Source of the DNA: an uncultured Planctomycetales bacterium
Lineage (GTDB): Bacteria > Omnitrophota > Gorgyraeia > Zapsychrales > JANLHA01
Direction: 5' to 3'
DNA: 64,000 nt
Assembly (NCBI GenBank): GCA_964374105.1
Contig: CAYJXI010000001.1
Location: 7,743 to 71,742 of the forward strand
The notes below the pieces were generated by a model. The model was not told the origin of the DNA and searched no databases. It was given only the letters and a program-made list of their open reading frames with translations. This document shows positions 661-27,600 of the stretch, one piece after another (the stretch's first letter is position 1; each line of letters opens with the position of its first letter). The translations under genes and the position numbers were made by a program.

Positions 661-3600
661 ATTCGGACAGCTTAATATTCGCGGTTCTTCGGACAGAACA
701 AGGCATTCCCAGCCGGCGCCGTACAAACCGCTGGCAGAGCTTACCGCGGCTTATCGAGGCAAAGTCTTCGAGGGCCGAGCCGTTATTAAGGACAACGATG
801 TTGAGCTCATGATGGTGAAAGGCGTCAAGACCGCCGAACAAGAAAAGGCATTAAAAGACCTTTTTGCAAAGGTCGGGTATCTTTCCAAAGCCCCGCCGGT
901 TGTGGTCACTGCCGATTTCAAGAAGACTCAAGGTTCTATCGCTGCTTATAACGCCAAGACAAAAGTCCTTTACATCCACCTCGCTGTTCTCGACCAGCTC
1001 GCCCGAATCGCCAAGCTTGCCAATAACGAAAAAGAAATTTACCTTTTATTCCTCAAGGCTGTATTTGAGGGGCATGAAGAATTCCATATCCAGGGTGCCA
1101 ACGAAAAAGAGGCCCGTCAACGGACCTTAGAGTACCTTAGAAATTATGCCTTTACCCATGCGTCAGTCCTCAACCCATTCGATGCCACTCTGATTGTCTT
1201 GTCTAATCCGCAAATTTACGGCATCAAAGCTGAAAAGACATTTGCGAAGTCAATGTTGTCCATGGCTGGCCTCAAATCCCTCGAACCGGCTGAGTATATT
1301 AGAGAATTTGTCCAATACCTGTCGTGGTTACGGTTAAAGAAAGGCGGCGATAGTGCGGCTGCGATTCTGGGCAACTGGCTTAACTTTATCGATGAAGATA
1401 AACACAACCGACCGCCGGAAGCCCTAATCCATACCTTAAGACAGATTTTTGGTTTAAGCCAAGAGGTGATCGATAGTCTCATTGACCTATCCAAGGCGCA
1501 GTATCAGTTACCGGTGGTCGAAGGAATTAGCCCGCGCGGTCCGCCGTCTTATGAAGAACAGCTCTTAACAAGAAATATCTACGGTCAGCGAGATTCGAAA
1601 CACATTGAGCTCTATTTATCAAGGATCAAGACAATCAATGTTGCTGAACTTAAAAATTGGCTTACCAAGATGCTAAGGCAAAAGACCAAGGGCCGGGGAA
1701 AAGTCCTTAGCATTGTTATTTACGGCAGTTATCCTTACGGATTCCGCGTCAGTCCTTCTGACCTCGATATCGTTGCGGTCGTGGATGCGCCGTTAGCAAA
1801 AGAGACAAAGGACGCCTTGCCGACAACCTACCGCAACATTCCTCAGAAAATATTTAGTTCTGCTTATGCCCGCGATACTAAACATGCGGACGTGGTCTTT
1901 ATGACACCAGAGACGTTAAAACAGAGCGCCATGATAGGAACAAAGATTGCCCATGTCGGCATTGTCTTGCAGGGAGAAGGGCTCTTCGATATCGATATTC
2001 ATCGGCATTCGCTGGTCAATCGTTTGAGCTGGATTAAGTCCCTGCTAGAAAACGCAAGTTTCATGATCTCAGTGCGAGGTGCCAAGAACAAAAAGGGCGA
2101 GGAGATTAAAGACGAATATTTCTTAAGCAAGGCCATGCGCCGGATCCTTGAGGCCAACCTCCTTATCAAAGATATTGATGTGACTAAGGCTGTGCCGGAA
2201 AAGATTATCGATGAATACGTTGAAAATCTTGCCTATTACTTAGAAGGCGGCCTTGAGACCGAGGCCATGAGAAATCTGCTTCTAGGATTACAGGAAAGGA
2301 TAAGGGAAGCTTATCAGCAAGCGAGGATCACGGTCCTTAAGATCATTCTGGCGAACAAAGAGCGTCAGGAAAAACCAAAGGCGTCGTCCGCAAAACAAAC
2401 GACCAAGATAGTCTGGGATTATGAATTTAGAGGACAGATTACCCGGGATGATTTAGAGGATCAAAGCTATGCCTTCCGGAGAAGCGGGGCCGTTGATATT
2501 AAACTTGAGCGAATTACCCACGAGATCTTCTCAAGATTCAGAGAATTAGGTTTTGAATCTATTTACCTTAAAGAAACTACTTTTGAAGATAAGAGACCCA
2601 CTCTTATTATGGGCAATCATTGGTACGGCGTTTTAGAGTTTATATACCGGGAATTGAGAAAGAATATCGCTCATGCCTTTGCCAAAAAGGCGGAAAGTAT
2701 AGTGTTGCGTGTAGCCGTAAGAAGTATTAAGACACAGGATGAACAAGGACTTGAATTCGTTTTCGAAGACAATGGTGTGGGTTACAAACTGGATGAATCG
2801 ATCTTTAAGAAGAGCAAACGTCTAGGCAGGGGCTTTGGCCTGTTCTTAAGCAAATCTCTGATTTTAGCCAATGATATGGGTTCCTTCACCATCGAATCCC
2901 GCGGGAAGAGATATACGTTTGATTCAAGAAGGCCTGCTGAAACAGTTGAGGGAGATCTCACCGAAAGTGATTTTGTCAGCGGGATGCGGTTTACGCTGCG
3001 TCTCGTTAAACGCACCCTTCATGAACAAAAGGTGACTGTCCGTCTTCGTCCCGCAGACATTATGCGGGACTCCGCCGGACTATCCGCCGAAGCTAAAGAA
3101 GAAAGTCCTTTAGCGAAGGCGGATGTCGCCAATCCCGCCCGGGTGTCTTGGGAGAATATCCGCGCTGAATTAGAGACGCTTCATCCGGGAATCGCGGGGG
3201 TGAAGGAAGGGTATTTTGCCAGACTCTACCAGACCTTAAAAGAAACCTTGGCCTCGCTGGCTCAAAAGATCGATCAAGGAATCATTCATCCCGATCTCCT
3301 CATAAATACATCGGTCGGCGCAACCGAAAAGACCAAGATCACCGACCGACCCATCCGCGTCTTATTGCAGGGCTTCTCGGCCAATCCGATTCACTTAAGC
3401 CACATCGCCTTTGTCCTGATGGCCATGAATGCGCTTAACGCTGATTTAGCCGTGTATCTGGTGCATGGCGAGATCAAACACAAGACCTTGAAGGAAGATG
3501 AAATCGTTTTGGTTTCTGACCGCCACCAGATGGTTAAGGATTCAATTGAGGATATTCCCCTCATTCATTACACGGATGTTGGCTTAGATAACGCCGATGT

Positions 3601-6600
3601 CAGCGAATACAACATTCATCGATTACTGAACCTCAATCCGGATCAGAGAATTGAACTCATTGTCCTCTACAGCAGTGAAACAAAGACAAGGGCAGAATTC
3701 ATTGTAAGAAGCCTCTTAGAAGGGGCAAGACAATATAACTTTGGTGTCAATCCCCATCACCAGATTCATTTGGCGATGGTGCCGGTGGGGACATTTGGTA
3801 AAGAGGAGTTGACTGACGAGGTGCTGGCGAAGATGGTTGAAAAAGAATCCCTCCCCACCGATACATTCAAGATCACCTCATCTGTCATTCTCAAAGATTA
3901 TGCCCTCGAGGCCCATTCGGTTCAATATCGTCAGGGCAATCGTATGTTGGTCAGAAAAGTCGTGGATGATTTTGCCAAGGCCAAAGGCTATTACGGTTAT
4001 CCCAAAGAACGAAATGACAAGTCACAAGTTAACGGTACGATTCAACCGGAAAATCTGTCTGACGGACAGACAGGCCTTCCTTATCCCGCCATCCTTCCAA
4101 CAAGCAATGAACCTGATAGATCACCAATAAAAGAAGAATTAGAAACAATCCTCCCTGCCCTTGGCGGGCAAAAGGCCTTGGCCAAAAAGGGCCTAAGGAT
4201 GACAGATGATAATATCGTGATCAGCCCATCCTTAGCCGCACCGGCGGAGGTCAAGAACCGCATCCTCTTTGTCAATCCCAACATCCTGCGCGGCCCGCCG
4301 GTAGAGTTAAGAATTATCTTCGAAGGCCACGAACTCTTCCATCTCTTGGGCCATGACGAACAAGAAGCCCGCCGCCTGACCATTCGCTATCTTAAAGTTC
4401 ATAAACTTTTAGTTAGCCATATTGGATTCTTGGAGAACAACCGATTAGGCTTGATTGCCGACAAGGCATGGATTGACATATTGAAACAAACAGCGCAAAA
4501 GTCGATCGCCGTCATTCAAACGAATAGGCACGTCTCTGCCATTTATAACCGTTTCTTCGCCTCATTCCTAGAGTCGCCTTTTGCTCTCATTGTCGGACTT
4601 GTTTCCGGCCTTGTCATTCCCTATGGCATGACGTTCACTATGAGAAGGGTGTTTAGCAGTAAAAACGTATTTATGTGGGTTGCCGAGGGATTGGCTATTT
4701 TGACGTTTATTGCCTTGAATCTTTTCATCGTGTATTTGGTTAGTGCCAGCCTCTTTGATTTCATTCAAAACAAATTGCATAAGAAAATCTACAGCAAATA
4801 CGAGTCGAAATTCGATTTGGTAAGGGAGGGAATCACTTTGATGGCCTTGACCAGTGGCCTGTTGTTGACCATTGAGATTTTATACGGTGTACCTTTCTGG
4901 TTCTTAATTCTCACGGGTGTTTGGGGAATCCCGGTACTCATCTGGCAGCACCGCCGCGTTCTCTTGGAAATTATCAAGCAGGAAACGCCTCTAAGTCCGG
5001 TTCCTGCCCGCAGTCAAATCAAAGGCTTTGATTTAATTGAGCTTGTCATCGAAGATTTGCAAAACAAGAGAATCAGCGAAGAAGGGGCGGTGGAAGAACT
5101 GATGAGGATTGGCAGGGAGTTTGGCAAAGATGATCAAACCGTATGGGGTATGATTTCCATCCTGATGTTCGACCGTGGTTATCAGGTTGACTCGGAGTCG
5201 GTGCATTTGGCGGCGGTCAAGATTTTGGCCGGTCGCTTAACACCCGTGGCTAAAGAGGAAAGACAAGAGACGTTGATCATCCGCGGGCTCATCTCCGGAT
5301 ATCTCTTGAGTCCTTACATCAGCGTTCCTATGGCCATTGCCATGGCCTTAAATGCGATTCAAGACGATGAACTCATTAAGCAGGCGGTCAGGGAGGAGAA
5401 CGAAATCAAGAATATCGCTCGTCCCCCGCAGCATCGCTGGTTGATAAAGTTGAAAGAGAAGTTGATTCAGATTATCGATACCGGGTCGCAAGGGGTGAGG
5501 ACTTCCTTTGAATTATCCCAGGCCGTTCGGCTATTGGGATTAGTCGGTGAGCTTTTACGGTCAGTGAATTTGGCTGAGCCAGCGGGCGAGGTTCTATTAC
5601 AGCTAAAAGAATACCGCACCACAACGGCTGTCCGTTTAGGAAACGATTTTACGCAGAGCTTAGAACGGGAAATTCAAAAGTTGTCTGCTGAAAATTCACA
5701 AAAGAGGGAAGAGGCAGGCGACACCTATCCCGCCACCATGCCGGTAAGCAATGAACCTGATCGGGCGCCGACTCAGAAAGAGTTCGAACAGATTATTGCC
5801 TCGCTGGGCGGGCAAAAGGCCTTGGTCGAGAAGGGCATTACGATGGTTGTCAGCCATATCGTGATCAGCCCCTCCTTAGCCGCGCCGGCCGAGGTCAAGA
5901 ACGGCATCCTCTTTGTCAACCTCAACATCCTGCGCGGCCCGCCGTCCCAGAATCAAAAATCAAAAGAAGAATATGAGAAACAACTTAAAGTCATCTTCGA
6001 AGGCCACGAACTCTTCCATCTCTTAGGTCACAATGAAGCAGAAGCCCGCGACCTCACCGTTCAGTATCTTTTGACCCATTATCGGTTAACAGAGCATATC
6101 GAATTCCTAAAGAACAATAACCTTGGTTTGGTAGCCGAACAATCCTGGTTGTCTTTATTAGAGAAGGCCGTTTCTTATCCGAACCGCTCATTTGTCAACA
6201 AACTTATTGTTGTCTTAGTGTGGAGCTTACTGGGAGCAGGATTAATTGTGGGAGTTTACTTAACTGGTTATCTGAATTGGTACATTGCCTTGAAGCAATC
6301 TTTATTAGGGAAGACATTGTTGAGTTTACCTGTGGCTGGTTTGGATATATTAACCGGGGCTATCATCTGGGGAGTTGCTGATATCATCGGTCAATACTTA
6401 GCCAAACAAACATCCCGTATTGATTGGAGACAGACAGCCTTAGTGGCAGTGTTTGGTATTCTGGGTGGACTCGGAACACATATTCTGCTCAATATTCCTG
6501 ACGCCTTGTTGCCTGTCTTACAAAACAAATTACTTAATCAAATCTTCCGTGCCTTCGTGGTTCTTGTGGGTGGTTTGGCCTTAACGCTTGTGTTTACGAA

Positions 6601-9600
6601 GGCGGAATCACTCGCGCGAAAGCTCTTCCATATCGAAACCTTTCAAGTGAGAACAGAGAGGCTTAAGACAGCGGATGTGTTGTTTGTGAAACTGCTTTTG
6701 GCTCCATTAAAAACATTTGTGGTGATCAATCTCCTGCCTGTTGCCGCAAGAGTTATTGCCGAACAACTCTGGGATTACTTTATGACAATGTTTTCCGCTT
6801 ATTTTATGAATCGTGATCGGTCAATACTCTTAGAACCAATTAACAAATTTATTCAATCATTTTTGAAGGAAAGAAATGAATCCAAAGGAAATCAACCCGC
6901 ACCTTACCTGCCTACCAAGGAACAAAAGGCCAAATACGAAGGCAGGGTTTATTCCGGCAAAGTGGTTGTTGAGGGTAAGGAAGTTAAAATTGTCAAACAA
7001 ACCGGCGTTCGACTCAATGTCCAACAGAAGAAGGCCTTGAAGGATCTCTACGCGGTTGTTCCTTACTTAGCCCAGGCACCGCCGGTGGTCGTGACCTCGG
7101 ATTTTGGTAAGACCGAAGGGTCGATTACCGCTTACAATCCTGCCGAAGGCATTCTCTACATTCACCTCTTTGTGCTCGATAAACTCGTTGAATTCGCCAA
7201 AGGTGACAGTCACCAAAAGGTGACAGTCACCTTTGTAAACTTCCTCAGAGGCGTCATCGAAGGTCATGAACGATTCCATGTTGAGGGTGCCAACGAAGCA
7301 GATGCCCGCCTAAAAACGATTGAATATCTTCAGGGGAATTTGGAAGTCTTACAGGCGACTAGGCAAATCCTTTCCTATCCAGATATCTTTGGAATCACAG
7401 CCGAGTCCCAGTTCGCTAAAATCCTCAATCAAGAAAAAGAATTCTTCAACGTAACAAGAAAAGAAGATGTTGAAACACAACCAACAGAATCTGGCCTTCA
7501 AGAGGAAGACTTAAGATCCCTTGATCAAATCACTGGCTTACGAGTTCGGATAGCGCATACGGTGACACCTTACGCGGCCAAATATCGTCAAGAATCCATG
7601 GAGCAGAGAAGGCGTCTCACCGGCCAGATGACCTATGATGAATTATTCTTCAACAAGATCTTACCCAGATTTATTGAACGCTATATCCGATACATCTCCT
7701 CTGATCAGCCGCAAGGCCTCATTGATATGCTTCTTATTTCCGGTGAGGGTGGTGGTGGCAAGTCTAGTATTACCGAAGAATTTGTCAGCAAGACAGGGGA
7801 GGTCATAGAGGACTTAAGTCTCAAACTTGGCAAGCCGTTAAGACAGATTATCCTTGCGATTATTTTTGATGATTATATTTTGCAAAAGAGCGACCGTGTG
7901 ATTGATCCCAAGACCCGAAAGACTACAGAGAATCCGCTTTTGAAATTCCAAGTTGAACGCTTTGTCAGTGATATGAAGAAGCTCCTGGAAGGCAAGACGA
8001 TCTATAAACCAATCTTTGATTCATTGACAAGGGGTCGAATCAAGATCGGGCTTGACAAAAATGATCGTCTGGCGGTTATTGCCGGTGGCCATTCAGTTCC
8101 CATTGAGATGGATGCGGCATCCGGCCAACCCTTTATCGTAGTGGAAAAATTGAAAGTCTCAGAGTTTACTTTGGGTAAAACAGCGATTTCTGTGTCGGCC
8201 AACCCAGCCGGCGGAATCCTCCTTAAGATAAGAAATACAGCTCATCACCTGACAAGAGATAAAGATCAAAATTGGGTCTTACACGTTCCGCAGAAAGGTG
8301 AGGTTGCGGTCTCTGATCAACCCATCGAGGCTTGGGAAGAGATCAATCCCAATGGCAAGATTATTATCGTGGAAGGGATATTGACCTTGTTTGATGAGAA
8401 TTTAGCGAAAGATGAAAGGGTGATCTCGATGTTTGTGGATGCCCATTTTGAGGCCAGGCTCCTCAGGATGCTGATTCGCTTCCAGGCTGAGGCTGCGGCG
8501 CGTGGGGAATCGGCCGCGGAATTTGAAGCAAGACGGAGATTGCTCAGATTGGAGGAAGAGGTTCCTTATATTTTACCGACCCGCCAAAACGCCCAATACA
8601 TTGTCACAAGCTTAAGCCGTTCTGAGATGATTTATGTTCTCTACTTACGGGGGAGATTGTTTAGTTCTCTTAAAGAGGTAAGAAGAACGATAACAGAACT
8701 GAAGATCAATCCGGTTGAATTGATCCGCCGTTTGAATAGGATTCCTAGAATAGTCATCATGGAAAGATTAGCCGGGACCAATAATATTATTCATCACATC
8801 CAAGGGACTTCCTTTGTGACCTTCTATGGCGAGGAATCCGGCCAGATTGTTTACAAGGCACCTCGGGAGAACTTTAAGAATTACTTTGAAACGAAGTTTA
8901 TTGAGTTTTATCGAACGGTCTTAAAGAAACGGCTGGGAGGCCTCATGGTGCCGAGTGGACTATTCAATCTTAAGACAATGGGATTAGAAATTTATCGCAG
9001 TATTGACAAGAGGCTGGTTCGATTGAGTAAGGTCCTTATCCAGAATCGAGTTGAAACATTAAAGGAGAGATTGAATAAACTGATTAAAGAAGGAGAAATC
9101 GAGAAGGCTAAGAGATGGATTGATCAATACTTTGAGATCCAAAAAGCCCTTTGGAGTGTTGGAGTCATCGATATGGATCCTAAGATGCTTGAGAAGTATG
9201 GGATTATGGTCATGGAGGATGGGCGAGAAAAGGTGGTTGTTATTGGCATTGATCGATTGTTTGCTACTCAAGAACGATTCGAGCGGGCCGTTTATCTCAA
9301 AGAGGGAGTCCGACCAAGTCAACAGGATCTTCCGAAAGAATTCGTGGATTATTACGATCAAAAGGTCGATGAGGAGATCCCTGATTTTGAGGGATTCCTC
9401 AAGATTTTTGGAAGCAGGATCCCTGAAGCCCACGGGGTGGCTAACATCGCTGATACAGAGATTCGTAGAAAACAAATGGAAACAATCGTCAAAGAAGTCA
9501 TAACCGCCACGATGTTCAGACTGGGTCAATTCTTAAACCAGATGATGAGAGAAAACAAGGAGGTTGTTGATTTTCCGTTTATCTATTGGCTGGCCCTTTA

Positions 9601-12600
9601 TCGCGAAACCATTCATACTTACGCGACTTTGCAGTACACATTGGTTGACCATGTCTATCAGCGGGTTATCAATGATCAAGAGGTTTACCGAAGATTGAGG
9701 GACCTCAGCCAAAAGAAAGATCGATTTGAGGACTTTAATCAAGAGATCATTAAACTCGTTCATGAGGTGGTCAAGGAACTGAAATTAGGGATCACAAAGC
9801 GTGAGATTTACAATATCGCGGAAGATCTCTTCAGCTACGAAACGTATATGAGAAGAGAAAAAGGCCGCACTGATTCTGGAGCGAACCCCGCCCCATTTGA
9901 ACCAACACAAGACGAGAAGTCTAGGTATGAACCTTTAAGATTTTCCATGAAAGTCATTGATGGGGAAAAAGGCGAGGTCTCAGTTATAGAAGACGTTGTC
10001 CGATATTGGACACAAAAACATGCGGATGTCTTAAAAGACCTTTATGAACGAGTCGCTTATCTCGCCTTGGCTCCACCGGTTATTATTACCTCTGACTTTG
10101 ATAAGACAAGAGGTTCAATTGCCGCCTATAATTCCGCCGAAGGTGTCCTCTATATTCATCTTTTTGTCTTCGATAAGCTGGTTTCCATTAAGCATCTCAA
10201 CCTTATCGGTCGGTTTGGTCAACTCAATCATGAATATAAATCCGCCTTCTTAATGTTTTTAAAAGGAGTTATTGAAGGCCACGAGCGGTTCCATATCGAG
10301 GGCATTTTAGACGAAGGGTTAACCCGGCAAAAGACCATTCAATATCTCAGTCAATGGGAACATCGAGAGGTTCTTTTGGCCACTCGTCAAATTTTAATGG
10401 CTAAGAATATCTTTGGTGTTGAGACACAGGAAGATTTCTTTGTTACTATTCATGAGCTGGATGATTTCAGCCTTACCCGTCTGACGATTTTCGATAGTAC
10501 TCTAAGCGACTCCATCCACTGGGATTTCAGTCTGGAACTCCTGGCACAGAGAGAAGGCATCCCGGTTACCCATCTTAAGCAGAGGCTTAATGGCAAGACC
10601 ATAATGCTGGTTGGTATTAATAGTAACAGCATGATTGTTAACTTGGCGCGTCTATTGCCAGCGAGCTCAATCATTGTTGTCAACCCCGACAGCTCAATTA
10701 TTTCTGGTGAGGTCGCAAACGTCCGGTATATTCATGATGGCGTTGAAAACATCGCCCGGTACTCAGTTAACGGGGTTGATCTCATCTTCTCCTCCGGGCT
10801 CTTTAATGAGGATTATCCCGGGATCAAGCCGCAGCAATATCCGGCCTTTGCAAAGGCTATGAAGGAAAGTCTTGCTGCTAAGGGACTCATGCTCATTGGC
10901 ACTGGTCTTACGGGTAATGAAGTATTTGAGAAAGTTTTACGGACAGAAGATTTATTCGTAGAAAAATTATCTGAGATAGGAAGCTGGATATATCTGGTTA
11001 CAAAGCAAGATACAAGTGACAGTCACTCCCGCCAAGGCGGGATGACTGTCCTGCCTGCCGGCAGGCAGGTCACTTCTGGAACTCGAGTGGCATTTAAATT
11101 TATTAAAGGGCTGTTGCAGGCTTCGCTTGCTGTCATGCATGTTTTGGGGCAAGCGGTTCAACCAATGCGTCACCTACCGTGGCTGGTGAGGCGCATTGTC
11201 AAGAGTTATTCTGTAACAGCCCTTCCATCTATATTTAAGTTCTTAGCCAAGATGGCGGGTGTATTAGCCATACAAATAGTTGGCATGGGCGGCGGGAATA
11301 TCGGGGTGGTTTTGGTTATTACCACGCTGACATTCATTGTGCTTTGGGGAGGCTATAAAATTTCCAAGAATGTTAAACAATTCGTTGATCAGGAACGCCA
11401 ATACTTAACCAGACTCAAAGAATTGGCTGAAAGACTGAAAGAAATTGGTCAACGGATTCCTGAACTGGAAGAAAAAGCCAAGCGATTGTCCCCGGAAGCC
11501 CGAGATGCGGTGAAACAAGGACAGGAGAAAGTCTTAGCGGCCGTTGCCGGCGATCATTTTGAAGAGGCGTATGAGCTTCTTGAGCATTTATGGCAGACAA
11601 TCGAAGGTTATATGAACAATCTCATCGGCATTCCGGATGAATTGAAATATTTATTAAAGGAGCAGGAAGCGATTAACCAAAAAGGCAAGGCTATTGAGAA
11701 ACAACTTGTTTCCTTACGTAGCAGGGTTTCACGGTTCGTTGAATTCCTCTCTAGTCGCCTCCATAAACAACTGCGCCAGGAAGAGTCTGACCTTATTGTC
11801 AGCTGTTGTTATGCAACACTAACTTTTGATTTCGCGGTCCATGAAGCGGAATATCAAGCCGAAAGTACTTTGCGTGATATGACCTATGTTTTGAATTATC
11901 TTATCAGCGAATACACCCATGTCTTGAGAGAGAAAATGGAAGAAAGGAATGAGGTCGCTGTACTTTCCCCTGAGCAGATTGCACTCTATCACGAGCAGTA
12001 TATCGAGAAAAATATAAGACCAAAGATTGCCAGAGAAATCACGAGAGAAAAAATCAGTCCACAGAAGATTGACCAGCTTTTGGCCTATTTGAATGAATCG
12101 GCCGATCATATGGTCGAGGTTATGCCTCGAGGGGCGCCGGAAGAGGTACTTAAGAAAGCCAAAGAATTAAAGGCCAAGAGGAGCGCCATAGACAATTACA
12201 CATTAGAGGAAATTGCCCGAAGATTCGATTTCTGTAAGGCCTGCGCCCCCAATCAGGTTTATGGAAGGATCATCGCGGCGTCAGAACGGGTGGGTCAGTT
12301 TGAGAGAATTGTTCGCTTCAACCAGAGACTCTATGACTTAAGCGAAAAGATTGAATATATCGGCACAAAGGTCGGTGTTGATGTAAACCTTAAGCGTGGT
12401 TTTTCCAATCTTGAGCATACCTTCGGTTTGACGTCACCCCTGGAAGGCCTGGCCCGAGAAATTCTTTCCATAGATGATATTAAGCGCTGGAGGATTGTCA
12501 GAGACAGCGAACTGGCCAAGAAACGTTTTGGCGGGGAATTTTTAAGTCAAGTCAACGAGGCTTTGTTTAAGTTAATTGTCCATGACATCTTTGCCGAATC

Positions 12601-15600
12601 CGGCCACGATTCCTGGGAAAAGACCGCACGGGTAAGCCACTTGGGCGATTTACAGCATCCGGAGAGTATCGGTGCGTTATATTTGGTTTCCCTGCAGGGC
12701 GGGCACACCGCGGCCCACGCCATGGGGGTGTTATATGACCTATTAAGGGATGAGGAGTTCTTAAAAGTCCTGCCGGTGGCCATAAAAGAAAAGGTTCAGC
12801 CTTTGATCGATCGTTTTGCTCAAGCCGAACCGTTAGACCATTTTGACTTCTATACGATTGGCTGGAAGTATTTTGGTCTTGCCGAGGCGGCAGTTGTGCA
12901 GGGCTTAAGAAGCGATGACGCTAACTACCGTAAGCAGGCGATCGGCGCGGCTGAGGTTGCCCCGTATGAAGCTGATCTGCCTGAGCTCTTGAGTGAGGTT
13001 CGACGTCTTTTAAAGGAAGGATATGTTACCGATTTGACAAGATTCTTAGAGGATCGGATGGCTTCTCCCGTGGGTCCTGTGGTTGACATTGTTCGTCATT
13101 ATGTTCGTGATCAAAATGAGTTTAATGTCCATATTAGGCAGATCATTGAGATTGTGGCCTCGGCGGTCAACCGCTTCCGGGACACGCTCGAAAATCATCC
13201 CGAGATTCATAAGATGCACTTGGAAGAAAAACCAGACTATGTTGGTGTCATTGAGGAAAGAGAACAATTACAGAAAGAGTTAAACAAATATGTACCAGCT
13301 GTCATCAATCTTACTCCAGAACAGGCAGTGGTCCTTGATTTATCTTATGAGGAGGTTATGAAGACAACCGCTTCACTTCTTGTTTTGGGCAACGATGAGC
13401 GCTGCCGCAGTTGTCTTTTCGCCAACCTTGAATCAGGGGACTTATTTAAGAAAGAGGCCGCGGCCAAGGCGGTTGTGATGCCCCATAACCGAAAGATTGT
13501 TGGGCCAAAGGCCATGCTCCCGATCTTGAGAATTAAAGGTCAGACACAGGATCTTGAATTAGAGGGAGATATCCGTCTCTATCTGTCTGATGTCATCGAA
13601 GAGAACGAAGATTTTGCTCAAGAAGCAAGGCGTTATCTTAAAGAGACATATTTTGCCGGTTATCCGCCAGTGGCTGGATTTATCAATGCACTTGAAAATA
13701 GAAAGGCCTTAGTGAGGATCCTCGATGTCTTAGAAACGATGGGCGCGGAATCGTTCGTACAAATGGCTCTCAACCAAGAGAGGCTGGTGGAATGGTTGAG
13801 TCAGCAACTGGATTTATGGCTCGGGTTAATGGAGTTCAACACGATTTTGGGTGTCGTTTTGGGTAAGGAGGCGGCCTTAAATATCATTGAAGATATTATC
13901 AATGATATGAGGACATTTGCCGTTACCAGCTTGAAAGAAGTTCCTTATCGTCTGTTTATTATCCGTGAAGACAGACCGAATTTCTTTGTCTCGCTCATTG
14001 ACTATATCAGGGTGAGATTAACCCCGCGTAATCAAATAGTCGTGTTAAGAGAGCTAGGCCGATCGGCAGAGATGGTGATTAACATGGATACGACACCTGA
14101 TCAGCAGATTGTTCGCCAGAACTTTCATTTGGCGATTGTTATTTCTAAGATGTCAGCTTTGGCGTTTGGTGCCCAGTTTGTAGTGAATAGTGTCAAGGAG
14201 GCCACCGAACCCTTAGAGCGCTTGTTTGGTAAGGATGAAAAAGCCTCTCTGGTTGAATTACTGAAGGTCCTGCGTGAGATCCTGGAGAGATTGGATAAGG
14301 GAATCTATGCGGCTATCAATGAATTCATAGCCGATGTCCAAAGAGCGGTAGAGATTAGAGATGGTCTGTTGAAAGCCATTCAAGAATTACCCGCTGTGCG
14401 TGCGGCCCAGCAGCGCCGCAAGACCCTCGGCCAAGAGATCGGTCAACTGCGTAAGAGAATGAAAGAATTAAAAGAAGAAGGCCAGAAGCAAGAGTTAGAA
14501 AAGCAAATGGCTGGTTTGATTGACGAGCAGCGTTCCCATCAGGAAATTACCGATCAAGTAAATGCTGTCAATAAGGCTATAGATTTGACTTACCTTAGTT
14601 CTTTGAGTAATCAGCTGAAACAGAAATCTTCGTCGCTCGCCCAACAGGTTGAAAAAGAAGGTGTCTTAAGCATTAAGGGACGATTAGAGCAATATTTTGA
14701 ACTCTATCAAACCGAGGTCTTATTAAAAGAGTTGAGGGACGTCAATAGAAAGGTCATTACAACCTTCTTAAGTGAAGGGCAAGCAATACCTGTTGAATTA
14801 CCAAAAGATTATATCATCACCAATGAACTGAATAATCTGATTTTTGGCGCTTACCGGGCCAGAGAGGCCGAGGTCATTAGAGGAATCGTCCGGCCGATGG
14901 TGTGGACTTATATCTTTGAAGGACCGGCGGCCGTAGCAGAAAAGCTTTATTCACCACAAACCTTGGCACAACTTAAGGCTCTGGGTTATCAGAATCCGGA
15001 AGTCCTCAAAGAAGGATTAAGGATAAGAGGCGAGGTTGAGCCACCGGCTGATTTGTTGGCCGTCCGTCAGCACCGTTTGAATCTGGAAAAAGAAGAACTC
15101 CGTACACTTTTTGCCCAACTGCCGGTAGAGCTTGTCGAGTTGGCGAAAGAGGCTGGTGTAGAACTGGCTGAAGGCGAGGGAGTGGATCACTTTGCCCAGT
15201 TAGAGAGTGGTAGCTTGGAAAAGATTTATGCGGTTCTTAAGCCGTCAGAATTTACCGATTCTTACCAAGATGTCTTAGCTGATATTGAGACCCATATCGA
15301 GGCCATGAAACGCATCGAGGCAGAAATCGGTACGGCCACAGAAACCCGGCAGCCAGTGGATGTTATCGTTAGCAGCGATGTGGTGGAGAAGGTTAACATG
15401 GGTGTTGGGTTTGCTTCGTGTCTGTGCGTCTTAACCGGCGGCAACCGCCACAGCGCCTTTGTCAATGCCTTTGAACCCAATAAACTGGTCTTTTATGCAG
15501 TCAATAATAAGGGAACAAGGATCGGCCGGCTCTTAGTGATTCTCACCGATCAAGGATTGCTTGTCCACCGCGAATATAAGAGCACCACCTTGAATCTGGG

Positions 15601-18600
15601 ACCGGTCTGGTTTGAATTACTTACTCTCTTGGCGCAGAGATTGGGCAAGCAGGTATTGATCCCTGTTAAGGTGGCAGGCATGATCTTTGGTATAACAGAA
15701 AGTTTACAGGCTCAGCATATTCGGCCAATTGAATTGCCTGCTGAATTAAGCGTACTGCGTGTAGAGATGTTTAGATTTCCATCCAGGCTCTGGTATGACG
15801 ATCTTGGATTTACAAAGATTGATCTAGCTCAATCGTTTGAGCTGGAAGTATCCGGACAATTCTATATCTTCCCAGCGAAAAGGGATGATCAGCGCGAAGA
15901 TAATCCTGTGACTCCTGAGCCCACCGCCACAAGGTCGGGTGAACCGCTTTCAACAGAACAAGAAGACAAACTTCGGGAATACCTTAAACTCAAGGTAGGG
16001 CAGTTCAGCAGTTATGCGGACATTAAGGTAGACCAGATTGAGGCAACCATCAAGGCCTTGCGTGAGGCGGGCTTGAAAGCCTTGGCGAAGCGGCTGGAAG
16101 AACTCAAAGAAGCTCGTAAAATCCGCGCTGGGCCCAATGATGTTTTTGAGGAATTAAAGAATTTCGGCATTGATCTCTTGGCCTTCAACTTTAAAGACTG
16201 GATCATCATCCATCCGGAATTAGTAGAAACCCCCCATCGCATTCGCTTGCATCAAATCCTCACCCATGAGACAGCAGCAGTCCTTGGCTTCTCACATAAG
16301 ATTAACCTCATGTTTGAGAAGGTCATCACCAAAGAATTCACACAACAAGAACCAGGGTTTATTGATTTAGGTGAAAGAGAAAAGGTGTCTATCCCCGTTT
16401 CTGTAGTTGACAAAGTCGAGACTATCACTTTTAGAACTCAACCAGTTGGTTATCAAATCAAGAACAGACAGGTCATTCGGTTAGAGAATAGATTAAACCC
16501 GGATTTTGCATTGGCAAAATCCGCCCGAAGGGCCGCTACGGCATCCCGCCATGGCGGGACGCCTAGCGGGGTTAACCCCGCCAAAGGCGGCCGAAGGCAA
16601 AATTTGCAAAGCACTTTTCTGTATAGAAACAATCAACGAGGTCAAAGTCCTATTGCAAATTTTGGGTTAAAAGGCGATATGGCTAATGCTGTTCTCGGCA
16701 GAGGCAAGGGAGTCACTTTGTGGGAGGGCGGGGCTATCCAATGCAATTATTGTGTAATTTGGGATAGTTCAAGACGACAAGGGGCGATCATCCACACGAA
16801 TTATCTCCAATCCAAAGACATGATGGTGTCTTTCTTGAGAAATATTTTAGAGATATTAGGAATTCCATTAGAGGATAAGAGCTATTTAAGAGATCACGTT
16901 TTGACAATGATAGCTAATGCTCCTCACCAATCGGTCTTTGTCAGTGAGATGTCAAAGAGAATCGAAACCGTGCTGGCTGACAGCTTGGATGAATTAGGAT
17001 TGCCTCGGCTTAGGACGGATACCAGCGTTGCCTGGTATGTTACTCATATTCAATTTTTCGTAGATAAAGGAATAATACGATCAAGCTATAAGATTAACGA
17101 AAGGCAATTTTATCAAGTGGACTTAAAAGAATTGTCTAGATTGCGAAAAATGGGAAAAATGGGGACTGTCCCCATTTTTGAAGCCTCCGCGCCAATCTTC
17201 CGTGCCCTGCCTGCCGGCATAACAGGACCGCTTGAAGCCTTCGCTCCAATCTCCCGTGGCTCCCTGTACCACGTAGGGTACAGGGCCATGAACCCAACGT
17301 GGTTCATGGGGGTCATGAGAATTGTTTCCCAAACGACAGCGGCCCTTTTAAAATCTTCCGTGGCAGGCCCCGTAGAGAAACTTTACGGGGCAGGGAGGTC
17401 GCCGCAGATACCACTTGCACAAATCAAGGGACCGGTTATGCCTCACCATCCGTGGCAGGTGACGAGCATTCACCAGGGCCCATCTGCGGCGGCCTCTTCT
17501 TATCACAAGTCACAAGACATCCTTCGACTTCGCTTGGGACAAGCAAGTCAGCCCGCCCTGGTCTTCGCAACTGGCGGGCCAGGGAGGTCAGCCCGCCCCG
17601 GTCTTCGCAACTGGCGGGCCGGGGAGGTCAGCCCGCCCCGGTCTTCGCAACTGGCGGGCCGGGGAAGTCAGAAGACCCAAGATTCAGGACGCACAACGCA
17701 GAACACAGAACCCAAGACTCTGAACTCATTTGCACCTATCGTGATTGTGGGTTTAGGGATTGCAACGGTTGTCATCATCATGACGATCAAGGCTAAGAAT
17801 CGACTCATGAAGATAACCAAAGACTTTTTAAGTATTGCGACATTGATGGCCGTTGTTGGAAGTCTTTGGACGATTTGGATAAATCGTGAAAAAGAAGTTG
17901 AAGTGATTCCAAATACTCTTGATTCCCTCCCCCTTGTGGGGAGGGTTAGGGAGGGGGTGAGGTTACAGTCTTCACCCTCCCCTAGCCCCTCCCATCAATG
18001 GAGGGGAAATACAGGATTGGGAGAACAGGACGATTCAGCAAGAATTGTTTCGAGTGTCGGCCCAGAATTCTACAGAAGTGTCAGTGCCATACTCAACAAT
18101 TGGTTAGAGGAGAGAATGAAATATATTGTGATTGAATTAGCACCCAGAATGAGTCAAGAACAAACACGGAACCTCTTTCATCTCCTGAGGGCCATGCAGG
18201 AGGTCACAGAAACAAGTGGCTTGAATACACCTCTGCTGGGTGTAGATCGTATGGCCGTTGGCTTCCACGAAAGTGATCGTTTCAAAGCGAATCGTCAGTA
18301 TCGAGGGCCTGCCCGCGGGTGGCTGCAGGTGGAGAAGAATACCATTAAGCATGTGGTGGAAAATTTAATGCCTCGATATCCAACTCTTATTCCCATCGTT
18401 GTGAAAGAAGCCGCAGATTATCATAAGAGGGCAATGACCTTTAAAGATATTCAAAGATTAACGCCAGATGAACTCGGGGTGTTAGTCAGACAAAGGATTA
18501 AATTTGATGTGGCGGTTCATCTTGCTTACTTTATAGAGGAAATGAGTTTAGGTGTCAGGAGGTTAGCCACTCAACATGGTCTTCTCTTGGATCGAGAAAA

Positions 18601-21600: not shown

Positions 21601-24600
21601 TAACCAAATCATCGCTAGTCAATCGAAAAACGAAGACGATGAGTATAGAAGAGAACTCATGAACCGACCCGATGCTGCCGCGCGGGCCATGGTGACCAGC
21701 TTAGGGGCCAATCGTTATGTTGTGACCTACGACTTTAGGATGATCAAGGCAGGGATGGCAGCCTTGATTACCGGGCTTGCTCATGAACTTATTGCTCACA
21801 CTTATATCATGGAGAATATGAAAGAAAAATTATCACCTCTGGAAGAGGAGAGACTCGCTTTTGCTTTGGAGATCAAATATATTGAGGTGCTGTTAGCCGA
21901 CCGCGATCTGGTTGAACAGATTACCTTGGGCGGCAGGAATTTAACGATCTACAACGATTTTAGAAATCTATTGGAATTTGAAAAAGCCACCCTGGCTTGG
22001 ATTGAAAAGGAAATAAAACAACAGAAGGCCGCGCAATTAAAGAAGACAATCGCCATCATTGGTGCAACAGCACTGACAGCGGGAGCAGGCGTCTTAGGGA
22101 CTTTACAGGTCATCAAGTTAAGAAGATTCAAGCGCGTTCGTCTCGTCTTTGATGCAATCAAGGGTCAAGGGGCATTTGCTCAATTGGATAAGCTTTTACG
22201 AAAACAATTAGTCGCCCAGTTTACAAAAGGTAATCGTTTCGAACGTGCGACCTTAAAGCAGGCCGGGCTGTCCACAACCCAGAGAGAAGAATTTAAAAAG
22301 AATTTATCCCGGATGATGAGTGAAGAGGAGGAAGACGAAGGGAATGAAGGCGGAGTGATGCTGGGAAGCGGGAGAGGCTTAAGTGCAGTGCAGGAGAAGA
22401 TGGTGAATCAGGCGCTGGTAGAGAGCGAGGTGAAGGAGGTCAGTGAGGAGGAGTACCGAACATTGGATGCGGGAGGCGAACTAAAGTCCGAAGGGGTGGT
22501 GATCCATAAGGTGAGCGGGTTGAATGCGAAGATCGAAGAGATCGGGCAAAGAGAACATACGATGTTTGGGGATGAGGTGGTGACGTATGCGAAGGTGAAG
22601 GAAGATGGGAGCAAGCATTTGTACTTGGATGAGCGGGAGATGTATGTGGTGATGAATCTGAGTGAGAGGTTAAGGAGGCAGTGGGGAAGTCATGAGTTAT
22701 TGCACTTAAAGCAGCCGATGCTGAGTGAAGAGCTGGTGCAGTTGCAGGTGCCAGTGGATGAGGTGTTAGAGGCGAGGGCGAAGTATCTGGGGTATGAGAC
22801 AGGAGAGGTGAAGGCCTTGGCTATAGTGAGGAAGGAAGGGGTGAAGGAGAAGGAAGTGAGTAGTGCGATGGCGGTGGCGAAGGAATATGGGGTAGTGCCA
22901 TCAAAGGTATTGGCGTTATCGAAGAAGCATGGACTGCCGGTGGTATTGACGGGCGAGGCGATGGGGCTTGCACAGAGGTATAAGACGACGATGAGTCAAG
23001 TAGCGTTGTGGGGCAAGAAGTATGTGGGGATTTTGAATAAGGCGGGGTTGAGCCGGGAAGAGATCGATGAGATCTGGCGGACGTTAGGGTATGAGCAGAA
23101 GGAAGAGGTGTTAGATGCGATCGAGAAGATATTAGAGATTCATCAGGAGATCGAAGAGAGTGAAGTAAAGTTTTCGATGAGTGTGATAGAGCTGGTGCGA
23201 GCGTATCGGGTGGTAGGGGATATGGATGAGCTGCGGGAGCTGGTGCGGATTGCGATCGAGCATCCGATGAGCGGGCGGGGATATGGGCAGGTAAAGCAGC
23301 GGTTCCCCGAGTATGCGAGATTTAAGAAGCTCTTGGAGATATGGGAGGAGTATGTGGAAGCGGGTCATCCGATCAGTGCCGAGATCATAGAACAGATGTT
23401 TGATAAGAAAGGGCGATCGCGGTGGGTGAGTGAGGAGGAGGAAGGTGAGGAAGAGGAATGGCATGAGGGCGGGGTGATGCTGGGAAGCGGGAGAGGCTTA
23501 AGTGCAGTGCAGGAGAAGATGGTGATGCAGGCGCTGGTAGAGAGCGAGGTGAAAGAGGTCAGTGAAGAGGAGTATGCTGCGTTGGATGTGGGAGGAGAGT
23601 TGAAGTCCGAAGGAGTGGTGATCCATAAGGTGAGCGGGTTGAATGCGAAGATCGAAGAGGTTGCCCAAAGGGAATGGACATCGTTTGGAGATCGGTTGAT
23701 CACGTATGCAAGAGTAGAAAAGGATGGCAGTAAGCACCTGTACCTGGATGAACGAGAACTGAACGTGATTATGTATTTACCATCCCGCATCCGTCAGCAA
23801 TGGGGCAAACATGAAATGGGTCATCTTAATCAACCATCTTTACCTGAAGAAAGGATACAGAAGGACGCTCCCATTGAGGAAGTCCTTAATTCACTAATCC
23901 ATCCAACTGAACCTATTGTCAAAGTATATGATGAACTCGGCGGGTTGAAGATATCAAGGAAAGATCAACTCTTTAAAGATAAAGAAGGAAAGAAGAGGCC
24001 GTATACCCGCAAGGGCCAGGTGTTACACACCTTCCATCTTGCTGTCCAAGAAGATTTGAAAGCAGTTATTGATCAGAAGATTCTACCTGCTCTCACTACA
24101 AAGAAAGCAAAAGCGAAGATAGAAGAAAATCTTCAGCTGATATTTAGACAGACCGGGGAATTTGGGAATATTAAAACGATCAGTATTTCCAACGGGATGT
24201 TGACCCCACTTTTCTTTGAAGAAGACCGCACTTACGTAGATGTGAGCCTGTTATTGATGCCTTCCGCTCCCTTTAAGGAATTATTGAGATTGGGTTCTGC
24301 CCATGCCTTTGAGAAGAGCCGAATATATCGGGTTCAGACGAGTAAAGGAAGCTTTATTGATGAGTATAAGGCCGATAGTGTGAGTGTGTTTGAAGTGGCT
24401 TTAAGTCTTCTAGCGGCGGATGAAAAAGTGCTTAAGCAACTGGAAGAGGCATTCAAGAATTTAAGCAAAGCTAATTGGGAACTTTCAGTTTATCAAGAGC
24501 TTATCGATGCCCTGCGGTATTTAAGAAGCCGCTTTGTCGTACAAAAGTATTTGTTAAAGGCACATAACATTTATGACATTTACGATTGGGAAATAGATCC

Positions 24601-27600
24601 ATTTCGGGATCGGTATGTGTTGAGTCAACAAAGAAAAGAGATATTAACCCGGGCGATCAAACTAAGAGAATCCTTACGAGATATTGTCGTAAGAAGAAAG
24701 AACATTATTTTGAGATTATTAGCCAATGATCCAAGATACATTGAAAAGAACAAAGAGAAAGAGAAAAAGAAAGAAAAAGAAAAGCGAAAAGCCATCAAAG
24801 AGCTTGCCCGCAGGAAATTCCTCTTACCCAGAAAAGCCGAGGTTGACCGGATAGCTCATCTGTGGGAAAGGCCGTATGAACAAATCGGCCAGGCCTTGAT
24901 TTCCTCAAGAAATCATCATTACTTGCAAATTATCCGATTAGTGCCCGCAGAGTTCATGCGGCTTTTGGGCATTCTTATCGATGCACGTTCTTTATCCAGT
25001 CATCTTCTTAAGAGCGGTTATACAAGGAAAGAGTTAAGCCAAGGATTTGGGATCTTCTTTAACCAAGTTGGAACAAGTCATGTCTCCATTGAAAGTCGGT
25101 ATAACGAGATGATGGCAGCCCTCATTTTATATCGCGGGGCTTTTAGCGAAGATCTCTTTAAGGAAATCTTTGCCCAACTGGAGGTTGCCGAAAGAAAGCA
25201 ATTGACGTCTTATTTAGGAGAACAGGTTTCGCGGGTCATTAACTATGAGAGAACTTATATGGGAATCATCAAATATCTTGCGATGTTCCCAGGAGCAACG
25301 GTAAAAGATTTGAAGGCTCAAGGATTATTTGCGGAATTGTTCGATCTGTTTATTAAGATTCACACAATGACCGTCCAGAAAGAAGAAGTCATTGAGCTGA
25401 CAGTCAAGGAAATGCGAATCAAGGCAAAGAAAGTCTTGATGACAAGACTTCTCTCCCGTTATGGTTGGGCCTTAGGGTTATTTTTAGCTCCGGGATCAAG
25501 GGTTGATAGAAACCAAGTGATCTCTTTTATTGGATATTACAAAGAACAAATTCACAGGATTGTCGATTTTTATCTTGACGGAACATTAGTGATGGATGAA
25601 ATGGTTTTAGAATCCATCAGTCATTTATTGCCTTACCTAGCCCTGGAAGGTTATGACAAGCGATTAGGGGTGGTGAGAAAGAAAGTCAAAGATTTTGGAT
25701 CACTTGAACGATTGTTTAGCGTGCCGTTGGAGTCCCCAAGTGAAACTTTAGCTGTAGAAAGGGCAGCGGTAAAAGCCATGTTAACCGCAGGGGATGAAGA
25801 GACGTTACGAAGGGTATTTAATGACTTGAAGAACTTCTATCAGACCCAGCGTAAACCAAAAGAAATCATTGCTGATTCCGCCATCGATTATGCCTTGGCC
25901 CTTATTCAGGGGGTACAAAAACTTTTACAAAAACCTGTCACTCAAGAACAACGGCAAATGGTCGCATCGATGGTAAAGGAGATTGCCTCTCATCTGATTC
26001 ATAAAGAGTTAACGATTACTTCAATACAAACTTCCATGGAAGAAAAGGCCAAACGGATCATCACCTCCATTCAGAATCTCCCTCAAGAGATTTTAACGGA
26101 AGCGCTGAAAGTGTTGACCGATCATACCATTCTTGATTTTATATTTTTCCGTGATGAAATGGCGGTTATCCGAACCGATGTGCTTAAAGTTGTTGATGCA
26201 GAAACCTTAAGTAATTATTTTTCAACCAAGAGCGAACGGGAGGTGACTTCAAGTCTTGCTCCTATCAAAGATAATATCTTGAAAAAGAAGGTTTTGGCTG
26301 CCATGAAGGCTACAGAAGTGGGTAAGATGCCCGCGATGGCCAAACATGTTTTAAGACGGGAAATTTACCTCAGGGAGACTATTCATTTACCCAAAGAGCT
26401 GACCGCTTATTCAGGGGAGGCTGTCCCGAATTATTACGCTATCTTAGGAGTTCCCATGAAAGCCACACCTTTGATGATAGACCGATCATTCAAGGCGCTT
26501 TCCTTCTTGTATCATCCTGACCGGGCTCAACCTTCTGAGAAGGCCAAGGCCGAAGAGGAGTTCAAACGGATCAATGAGGCTTACCAAGCGCTCTCTGATC
26601 CGCAGAGAAGGAAGGAATACGATGAGAGTATACCCAAGTATGCTTACTACTATCCGTCCAAGCCATGGTTAGAGTCGGATGTGGATCTGGATGCTCTCAT
26701 AGCCGAATCCGTGGTTTCGGAAAAGAAAGAAAAAGAAACGCCAAGCGAAGGTCAATACAAAACCAGTCCGTATCTTCCAGTCCGCTTGAGTGATCTTAAA
26801 AAATGGTCGAAAGCCTTGAGTGAAGATTTAGAAAAAGAAACTGGAGAAGCAAAAGAGCCCAAGAAAAACGAACCCCAAGGTCAAGGAGGGGCGATCCTTG
26901 CTTCAGGAAAGAGTTTGAGTGCTAAACAAGACTCGATTATCCGCAGGGTATTGAAGGAAGCTGAAATTGAGGGTACCGATATCATCGCATTTCGTATCCT
27001 TATTACCGAAAGTCCATTATCTGGAATGAATGTCAGAATCCAGGCCATCAAAGATTTCAATCTTAAGATCCGCCAATTGGCTGAGGAAGAGCAAGTGCCA
27101 TTTAAGGACAGAGTCGTGACCTACGCTTATGTAGATAAGTCAGGCGTAAAATATCTCTATTTAGATAAAATGGAGAGGGAGATGATCATTCATCTTCCTA
27201 AACATTTGCGTGATCAATGGGCAGAGCATGAAATGCTGCATCTTGAAAACCCAAGATTAACGGAAGAAGCAGTGCAAAAACGAGCTCCTATTGAAGAATT
27301 CTTGCGCGCCCTCTATCCTCCCGAAGAACCTACCATTAAAGTTTATGATCAGTTGGGAGGGTTGAAAATCACAAAGGTGTCATCGACGTTTACTGATATT
27401 GAAGGTGTAACGAAGGATGTTTCCTTCAAGGGTGAGGAGATCAGCACTTATCATGTTTCCTTAAGGCCAGATGATGCGAGGCATTTAACGAGAGACTTTG
27501 AGAAGATTTTACATCGTCGAATTAATAAACCCAGTTCGGAGAAGATAGGATGGAATTTTAATTTCTTGACGGGGGAGATCAGCCGGTTTGGTGCGATAGA

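Follow-up and report, generated by a model that had tools for sequence, protein, structure and literature searches.

Predicted zincin-fold modules repeated along a giant open reading frame of Omnitrophota and their possible part in processing the chain

The open reading frame and its HExxH sites

The DNA analysed here (the window) is a stretch of 64,000 nucleotides (nt) deposited as an uncultured Planctomycetales bacterium and placed in the Omnitrophota by GTDB (assembly GCA_964374105.1, contig CAYJXI010000001.1, positions 7,743 to 71,742 of the forward strand); the subject of this report is a set of repeated modules carrying the HExxH motif that are encoded in it. In the six-frame translation of the window, the + strand frame from nt 2 to 64000 contained no stop in 21,333 codons and was open at both window ends, the remaining five frames having 893 to 1,653 stops each. 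When the open reading frames (ORFs) of at least 150 amino acids (aa) were listed, none of those contained inside the window was longer than 203 aa, and the opposite strand gave the same picture. Since one frame runs stop-free through the whole window, the window lies wholly within a gene that extends over more than 64 kb, and the single polypeptide assumed in the initial annotation was confirmed. All features described below lie on this + strand.

The ORF is part of a giant protein of the Omnitrophota type, a multi-enzyme chain anchored in the membrane. The ORF exceeds 10,000 aa, its transmembrane segments are numerous, metabolic Pfam domains are scattered along it, and its named relatives belong mostly to the Omnitrophota. 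The Pfam domains include a cytidylyltransferase-like domain (CTP_transf_like, aa 1127-1206), a PRK/uridine kinase (aa 2775-2873), a glycogen-synthase-like GT5/GT1 pair and, further along the chain, ChaN/Tiki, three DnaJ, GNAT, ribulose-phosphate 3-epimerase (Ribul_P_3_epim) and NAD-dependent epimerase domains. The 'multi-enzyme metabolic cluster' class of Omnitrophota giants (10.64898/2026.06.07.730766; West-Roberts et al. 2023, 10.1101/2023.11.21.568195) shares these traits: its ORFs are far longer than 10,000 aa and rich in transmembrane segments, and they contain internal repeats and scattered kinase, GNAT and GT5/GT1 domains. Giant bacterial genes of this kind, with 30,000 to 147,000 codons, are recent discoveries (10.1101/2023.11.21.568195; 10.64898/2026.06.07.730766).

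Ten HExxH sites were counted in the ORF, against 0.94 expected by composition; 500 shuffled sequences gave a mean of 1.0 and a maximum of 5. In the first 3,500 aa there are five sites against 0.15 expected, at aa 358, 1443, 2002, 2422 and 3427 (nt 1073, 4328, 6005, 7265 and 10280), and all five fall inside the five modules that had been delimited in the first 10 kb from inspection of the sequence. The later sites are at nt 22691, 23810, 27227, 43274 (HESNH) and 46124. The sites at nt 22691, 23810, 27227 and 46124 had been listed at precisely these positions, which brought the earlier total to at least nine; these nine were all recovered, and a tenth, the HESNH at nt 43274, had been overlooked.

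Modules of families A and A'

Module A1 (nt 707-1297, aa 236-432) starts with the motif QPAPYKP (aa 237-243) and has HEEFH at nt 1073-1087, followed by a candidate third metal ligand, Glu368, at nt 1103-1105. In module A'1 (nt 4055-4531, aa 1352-1510) the N-terminal motif is YPAILPTSNEPDRSP, the HELFH lies at nt 4328-4342 and the corresponding residue is Glu1453; in module A'2 (nt 5705-6199, aa 1902-2066) these are YPATMPVSNEPDRAP, HELFH at nt 6005-6019 and Glu2012. Module A2 (nt 6890-7489, aa 2297-2496), the copy chosen for modelling, has QPAPYLP, HERFH at nt 7265-7279 and Glu2432, and module A3 (nt 9872-10501, aa 3291-3500) has NPAPFEP, HERFH at nt 10280-10294 and Glu3438, with a one-residue insertion ahead of this Glu (HExxHxxGxxDE).

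The division into two sub-families, A and A', was borne out both by alignment and by self-BLAST. The three A copies are 36-49% identical in pairwise BLASTP comparisons, the two A' copies are 57.5% identical, and A matched A' with BLASTP E values of 1e-6 to 1e-8. When the modules were clustered, A and A' formed one family, the profile of which retrieves exactly those five copies in the window. In nine aligned copies, from the window and from four further genome loci described below, the invariant positions were L, A, L, EGHExFHxxGxxE, T and YL. The N-terminal motifs (PAPYxP, YPAxxP) are family-specific and occur exactly once per module. The idea that additional, free-standing N-terminal motifs mark sites of cleavage in trans was considered and found no support, there being one motif per module. 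The distance between the aromatic strand and the HExxH, which had been given as always about 35 aa, was measured as 35, 37 and 44 aa in A and as 21 and 32 aa in A', and is therefore not constant.

The two A' copies had also been described as nearly identical in DNA. Their overall nucleotide identity is 68%, so that the description holds only for a core of approximately 90 nt (about nt 4200-4290 versus 5860-5950), which is 90-93% identical. A 32-nt stretch across the HExxH (about nt 4310-4345 versus 5990-6025) is identical in the two copies, synonymous sites included. This pattern suggests gene conversion between the copies within the gene, or a constraint acting at the nucleotide level.

Modules B, D and E, family C and the lone site

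Three further sites belong to a family B. Module B1 (nt 22262-22921, aa 7421-7640; HELLHLKQPMLSEE; HExxH at nt 22691), the second copy that was modelled, begins 52 aa past a single transmembrane segment (aa 7350-7368). Module B2 (nt 23387-24031, aa 7796-8010; HEMGHLNQPSLPEE; HExxH at nt 23810) is 74% identical to B1, and module B3 (nt 26762-27451, aa 8921-9150; HEMLHLENPRLTEE; HExxH at nt 27227) completes the family. Homologues of family B outside its own gene were not found, the word-indexed search included. The site at nt 46124 had been grouped with these three under the pattern HE(L/M)xHLxxP; this assignment was incorrect, for the site reads HEFLH (nt 46124-46138, aa 15375) and is unrelated to the B modules. 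It has no repeat partner in the window and was missed by the module profile.

Module D (nt 42899-43621, aa 14300-14540) has an N-terminal NYPGS motif and the HESNH at nt 43274. It repeats the layout of the A modules, and two paralogous relatives in one Omnitrophota locus (L003) read HELLGH at this position. Module E (nt 46769-47236, aa 15590-15745; GPP...vITT...VYLHPQYF...) shows the same order of elements as A, namely a Pro-rich start, 'APP' with a strand, the aromatic 'VYLHP' strand, a helix and the motif, which here is HELVSH, that is HExxxH. This longer motif (HEL[VI]SH) is kept in all seven aligned E sequences (the window, L003 aa 2691-2824, P0033, P0009, P0015, P0034 and P0023). On this alignment family E is probably an active-site variant longer by one residue, as in the metallopeptidases of polyvalent proteins. 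Families A, A', B, D and E together provide ten modules in which the HExx(x)H is intact, spread over aa 236-15,745. When a profile of 94 module sequences was run on the window, B3, D and E were reached at E values of about 0.007-0.02, which is suggestive but not significant.

Family C consists of four copies at nt 15692-16441, 30182-31021, 34142-34921 and 39122-39961 (aa 5231-5480, 10061-10340, 11381-11640 and 13041-13320). They are 38-68% identical and have an invariant TATRSGEP about 95 aa upstream of HET[AG]AxxGxxH, a motif with metzincin-like spacing and with Ala in place of the second His. Family C gave weak matches to Pfam M10 (E 0.046 when scanned alone) and to an R3H-like PDB entry (E 0.53), and was absent from every other sequence examined. 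The hhalign comparisons of A with B, A with C and B with C were unsupported (probability below 5%), and sequence homology between A, B and C is therefore not claimed. The tie between B and A consists of fold and motif resemblance only; HELxHLxxPxxSE also occurs in A'-type relatives.

Relatives of the modules and conservation of their residues

Searching 1.84 billion cluster representatives with the profile retrieved only 70 proteins, of which the longest has 7,327 aa and 48 lie below 1e-10. Most are fragments of giant Omnitrophota ORFs and several have 2-5 copies of the module; P0021 (5,669 aa) has five and P0005 (2,304 aa) three, compared with five in the first 3,500 aa of the window. Scanning one genome per GTDB species with a degenerate pattern yielded four loci, all in Omnitrophota metagenome-assembled genomes (MAGs), which are 39-46% identical, each in a long open frame and each with FEGHERFH. 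A word-indexed homologue search with module A2 gave no match, and with the A/A' alignment it gave four short A'-type fragments. Pattern scans of metagenome contigs of the Joint Genome Institute and of viral contigs, and tblastn against phage and plasmid records, detected no relatives. When the window was compared with its homologues by BLAST, the similarity lay largely in the module families, with a small number of enzyme domains and a single transmembrane block (in P0008) in addition. As the similarity of these giant proteins is largely confined to the module, it behaves as a portable, shuffled cassette element, and it is one of the few elements common to otherwise unrelated giant proteins.

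The labels of ten homologues were looked up; six were Omnitrophota or Omnitrophica, one 'bacterium' and two Njordarchaeales. The latter are the two top-scoring homologues, P0005 and P0006 (MHA1610176.1 and MHA1608923.1, with three and two modules), which are labelled as a 'Candidatus Njordarchaeales archaeon' MAG; their contigs (6.5-6.9 kb) are each wholly one partial ORF. This DNA is probably of Omnitrophota origin, mis-binned into an Asgard archaeon bin.

Conservation was measured on 94 profile-aligned module instances, taken from the 70 database proteins, the four Omnitrophota loci and the window. The first His and the Glu of the HExxH are each conserved in 82/85 instances and the second His in 83/87, so the absence of His and Glu conservation in orthologues, which would have spoken against the modules described initially, was not encountered. 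A search for a third metal ligand, as had been recommended, pointed to the Glu located 6-8 residues downstream of the second His, which is invariant in the window copies (HExxHxxGxxE) and present in 81/85 instances overall; it is a candidate for that ligand. In many A'-type relatives the sequence is HELFHLLNPxxSE, with the Glu at +8, and Gly at +3 occurs in only 53 of 88 instances. Outside the signature, the Pro and Ala of the N-terminal motif (Y-P-A-x-x-P) are found in 63/68 and 60/68 instances, and the Thr and the Tyr/Phe of the TxxYL element following the Glu in 72/83 and 76/83.

These counts bear on the possibility that the modules are non-proteolytic zincin derivatives, serving as metal-binding structural or peptide-binding clamps, in the recruitment of partners, or in the hydrolysis of something other than peptides. 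There is a precedent in YbeY, which has a zincin-type fold and hydrolyses bonds other than peptide bonds. Against this stands the catalytic Glu of the HExxH, which is as conserved (82/85) as the metal ligands, a result unexpected for a purely structural site, and the full HExxH with the downstream Glu is retained in A, A' and B. We regard a non-proteolytic function as improbable.

Predicted fold of the modules

The structure of A2 was predicted with AlphaFold2 from the nine-sequence alignment (mean predicted local distance difference test (pLDDT) score 86.4, predicted template modelling (pTM) score 0.83). The model starts with a short strand (6-8) formed by the N-terminal motif, a hairpin, a helix (44-56) and three strands (66-69, 80-83 and 88-92); it continues with helix 93-103 and helix 109-131, which contains the HExxH (126-130), and ends, after a four-residue turn, with helix 136-149, the first residue of which is the conserved Glu. 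B1 was modelled separately from only three sequences, with pLDDT 84-91 in the core. The HExxH is situated near the C-terminal end of its helix in both models (helix 109-131 in A2, helix 135-150 in B1).

Compared with solved structures, the A2 model scored highest with projannalysin (6.5), selecase (6.2), proabylysin (5.7) and BlaR1 (5.0), followed by an M48 peptidase, PepO and ArdC (4.9 each), BepA (4.5), Wss1 and HtpX (4.4 each), Acel_2062 (4.1) and Spartan (4.0). Zincin-type hydrolases accounted for about 20 of the 30 best matches. The B1 model gave BlaR1 (7.0), selecase (6.5), proabylysin (6.2), projannalysin (6.0), Ste24 (5.5), ZMPSTE24 (5.4), BepA (5.3) and HtpX (5.2). Foldseek of A2 against the PDB produced no significant hit, and a profile of nine modules run against all PDB sequences (E up to 10) gave no peptidase hit, only matches at chance level. 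In the models the HExxH, which is conserved in relatives, lies on an alpha-helix, and the models resemble solved zincins in three dimensions. On the strength of the models, A, A' and B are very likely zincin-fold domains of new sequence families. They differ from metzincins (HExxHxxGxxH), as position +6 is a Glu, and A, A' and B have no M10 or other metzincin hit in Pfam.

The minigluzincins (MEROPS M95: proabylysin 4jiu, projannalysin 4jix, selecase 4qhf), the closest structural matches of the A2 model, come from archaea and are free-standing proteins some 100 residues long. Lopez-Pelegrin and colleagues are reported to have described, in 2013, a His as the third ligand of minigluzincins and C-terminal tails that keep them latent. 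The modules, in contrast, form part of a chain exceeding 21,333 aa and have Glu as candidate ligand, and no sequence similarity to the minigluzincins was detected. The Acel_2062 family of Asp-zincin-like 'mini-zincins' has the motif HEXXHXXGXXD (PMC3890501). Its spacing is that of the HExxHxxGxxE of the window, but there is no sequence match, and only some of the module instances have the Gly at +3.

With the models at hand, a chance origin of the motif can be weighed, namely that the HExxH sites are a compositional feature of the repeats and have no function. Internal duplication would multiply any motif, and for families B and C and the lone site at nt 46124 there are no homologues elsewhere by which conservation could be judged. 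But ten sites stand against about one expected, the motif residues are the best-conserved columns among homologues sharing 25-60% identity, and the zincin fold was recovered by two independent models. The explanation is contradicted for A and A', and we consider it highly improbable overall.

Transmembrane blocks and other possible substrates

Transmembrane blocks were estimated from Kyte-Doolittle hydropathy. Block 1 (nt 8-664, aa 3-221) comprises about six hydrophobic segments and stops 15 aa before A1; aa 850-1069 of P0008 (Omnitrophota RKY39133.1) match it with 45% identity and likewise stand directly before a module. Block 2 (nt 4562-4942, aa 1521-1647, four hydrophobic segments) follows A'1 after some 10-20 aa, block 3 (nt 6203-6733, aa 2068-2244, five hydrophobic segments) comes directly after A'2, and a transmembrane hairpin (nt 11231-11356, aa 3744-3785) is found 244 aa past A3. 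The order in the window is therefore membrane block, A, enzymes, A', membrane block, a further segment, A', membrane block, A, enzymes, A and, further on, a membrane element again. Three of the five modules are within 40 aa of a block, which was matched by approximately 0.4% of random placements over the whole protein and by 2.5% over the first 4,000 aa. Counts of positive-inside charges flanking the blocks were too weak to fix the topology.

The alternation of modules with membrane-spanning regions, proposed at the outset, accordingly describes this window but does not extend to the homologues. There a transmembrane segment within 80 aa upstream was found for 2/23 A-type and 2/46 A'-type modules, and within 80 aa downstream for 1/22 and 8/44, respectively, values at or near the background of 14%.

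This result concerns the possibility that the modules are active zincin peptidases directed at other proteins, either in membrane-proximal quality control or signalling in the manner of M48 and M56 enzymes (HtpX, Ste24, BlaR1) or in an attack on prey or host. The background-level proximity of membrane blocks in homologues argues against it, as does the Pfam search, in which neither M48 nor M56 was matched even with E values of up to 10. The modules differ from M48 (Ste24, HtpX, BepA, Oma1) and M56 (BlaR1/MecR1) peptidases in having no PF01435 or PF05569 match and no transmembrane helices inserted in the domain, and proximity to the membrane is no property of the family. For quality control one enzyme per cell would be enough, and it is then difficult to see why a chain should have many divergent copies. 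Attack on prey is difficult to reconcile with the domains between the modules, which need ATP, NAD, acetyl-CoA or DnaK and thus point to the cytoplasm. As cofactor-dependent enzymes and DnaJ domains occupy the soluble stretches, a cytoplasmic location is plausible, and with it intracellular substrates, a point in favour of processing of the chain itself. Activity on other proteins appears unlikely to us, if less so than a non-proteolytic function.

Possible processing of the giant chain

Taking the repeats, the conserved His, Glu, His and Glu and the fold-level similarity as observed, the five A and A' modules may be small catalytic-type zincin-like metallopeptidase domains that process the giant chain itself; this statement, taken as a whole, is tentative, and its chances seem to us somewhat short of even. 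The B modules are, judging from the model, very probably the same kind of zincin-like metallopeptidase domain. Self-processing is favoured because the modules combine a zincin-like fold and an intact conserved signature with divergent, interspersed copies nearly restricted to giant ORFs; the module families are almost confined to such ORFs, and a polypeptide usually has several of them at intervals of roughly 400-2,000 aa. The chain would be cleaved by the modules that it contains, each acting in cis or on adjacent cassettes, and the enzyme cassettes located between the modules and the membrane anchors would thereby be set free or activated. In the arrangement found in the window, cleavage at the modules would free soluble cassettes from the anchors.

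The proposal also rests on analogy with two known systems. In polyvalent proteins, zincin-like metallopeptidases are interspersed among other domains in one to five copies and were proposed to process the multidomain polypeptide (Iyer et al. 2017, PMC5512222). They include the C-terminal domain of ArdC, and HExxxH variants have been described among them; in their core, an N-terminal helix is followed by a sheet of three strands and by two C-terminal helices, the first bearing the HExxH and the second a Glu (PMC5512222). The A2 model has this layout (helix 44-56; strands 66-69, 80-83 and 88-92; helices 109-131 and 136-149). It differs in the extra helix 93-103 between strand 3 and the HExxH helix and in the conserved Pro-rich N-terminal motif, and the modules differ in having no Pfam match at E up to 10 and no relatives on phage, plasmid or viral contigs. 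Moreover, polyvalent proteins are injected effectors, whereas these modules reside in a giant protein of the cell itself, which exceeds 21,000 aa and is anchored in the membrane. The second system is that of the releasing peptidases of polymorphic toxins, for example the PVC-metallopeptidase (HExxHxxQ-E), which is likewise an in-line zincin-like domain in a very large protein. These peptidases were proposed to free other domains autoproteolytically (Zhang et al. 2012, PMC3482391). Usually, however, there is one copy upstream of the C-terminal toxin of a secreted protein, while the modules occur in many copies among metabolic enzyme domains and a toxin/immunity context was not seen.

Several points weigh against self-processing. 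Zinc binding and peptidase activity are inferred, as are the substrate and any site of cleavage. Neither Pfam (E up to 10) nor NCBIfam (E up to 1) assigned A, A', B, D or E to a peptidase family, and certain polyvalent proteins with zincin-like domains stay uncleaved (PMC5512222). Proximity to a membrane block was rejected as a defining trait of the module by the counts in homologues. Finally, the strand formed by the N-terminal motif (6-8 in the A2 model) may be the first strand of the fold and not a cleavage site; alternatively, it may be a docked, substrate-like segment.

Cleavage of giant proteins has already been suspected, with neither sites nor an in-line protease being named (10.1101/2023.11.21.568195). 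The papers on giant genes suggested C39 and S8 domains as possible processing enzymes and left it unsettled whether the product is the whole chain or is cut, the cleavage points being unknown (10.1101/2023.11.21.568195; 10.64898/2026.06.07.730766). HExxH, zincin or metallopeptidase modules are mentioned in neither of these two papers, and a full-text literature search for Omnitrophota and metallopeptidase had no Omnitrophota paper among the 12 top-ranked matches. A module lacking a Pfam model would be left unnamed in catalogues based on Pfam or InterProScan. The zincin fold and the idea of in-line processing zincins were known before; new are the sequence families and their confinement to giant cellular proteins, together with the number of copies and the minimal motif of the Glu type. 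The theme of in-line zincins processing polyvalent proteins would hereby be extended from phages, plasmids and toxins to cellular proteins.

A more specific version, which we hold to be doubtful, is that the giant genes encode cellular polyproteins in which an in-line zincin in each cassette cuts once, at or near its N-terminal Pro-rich motif (PAPYxP/YPAxxPxxxxPDRxP). If this were true, a single gene of more than 64 kb would act like an operon with post-translationally separated products, each junction would have a specificity of its own, owing to the divergence of the families A, A', B, D and E, and the missing protease and cleavage sites would be supplied for the question whether the giants work whole or in pieces. 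If the modules are inactive or aimed elsewhere, they still constitute a new family of about 150-200 aa, mostly from one phylum, for the domain databases.

Other repeats and features of the protein

An internal duplication of about 1,150 aa (nt 23402-26893 versus 26792-30322, aa 7801-8964 versus 8931-10107) is 30-56% identical, and both copies start with a B module and finish in a DnaJ domain. The three DnaJ domains of the protein suggest a built-in recruitment of Hsp70. The C-terminal 3,900 aa (nt 52334-64000, aa 17445-21333) are built from repeats of about 700 aa, five to six in number, which are divergent (20-39% identity); a Pfam scan of the final 3,700-3,900 aa or so of the fragment matched no domain. 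A spike in GC skew at 22-24 kb was considered as a sign of a repeat array, which was rejected; the spike corresponds to coding sequence rich in Glu, Gly and Lys.

Cys is nearly absent from the whole ORF (16 of 21,333 residues, 0.075%), a scarcity that may stem from contact with an oxidising compartment or from selection against disulfides that would pair wrongly in so long a chain. The cytidylyltransferase-like domain is present in three copies, at nt 3176-3691, 47252-48067 and 48101-48904 (aa 1059-1230, 15751-16022 and 16034-16301). The tandem pair is 38% identical, and the distant copy, 14,700 aa upstream, is 24-26% identical to them. Enzyme domains are thus re-used along the chain, as the HExxH modules are.

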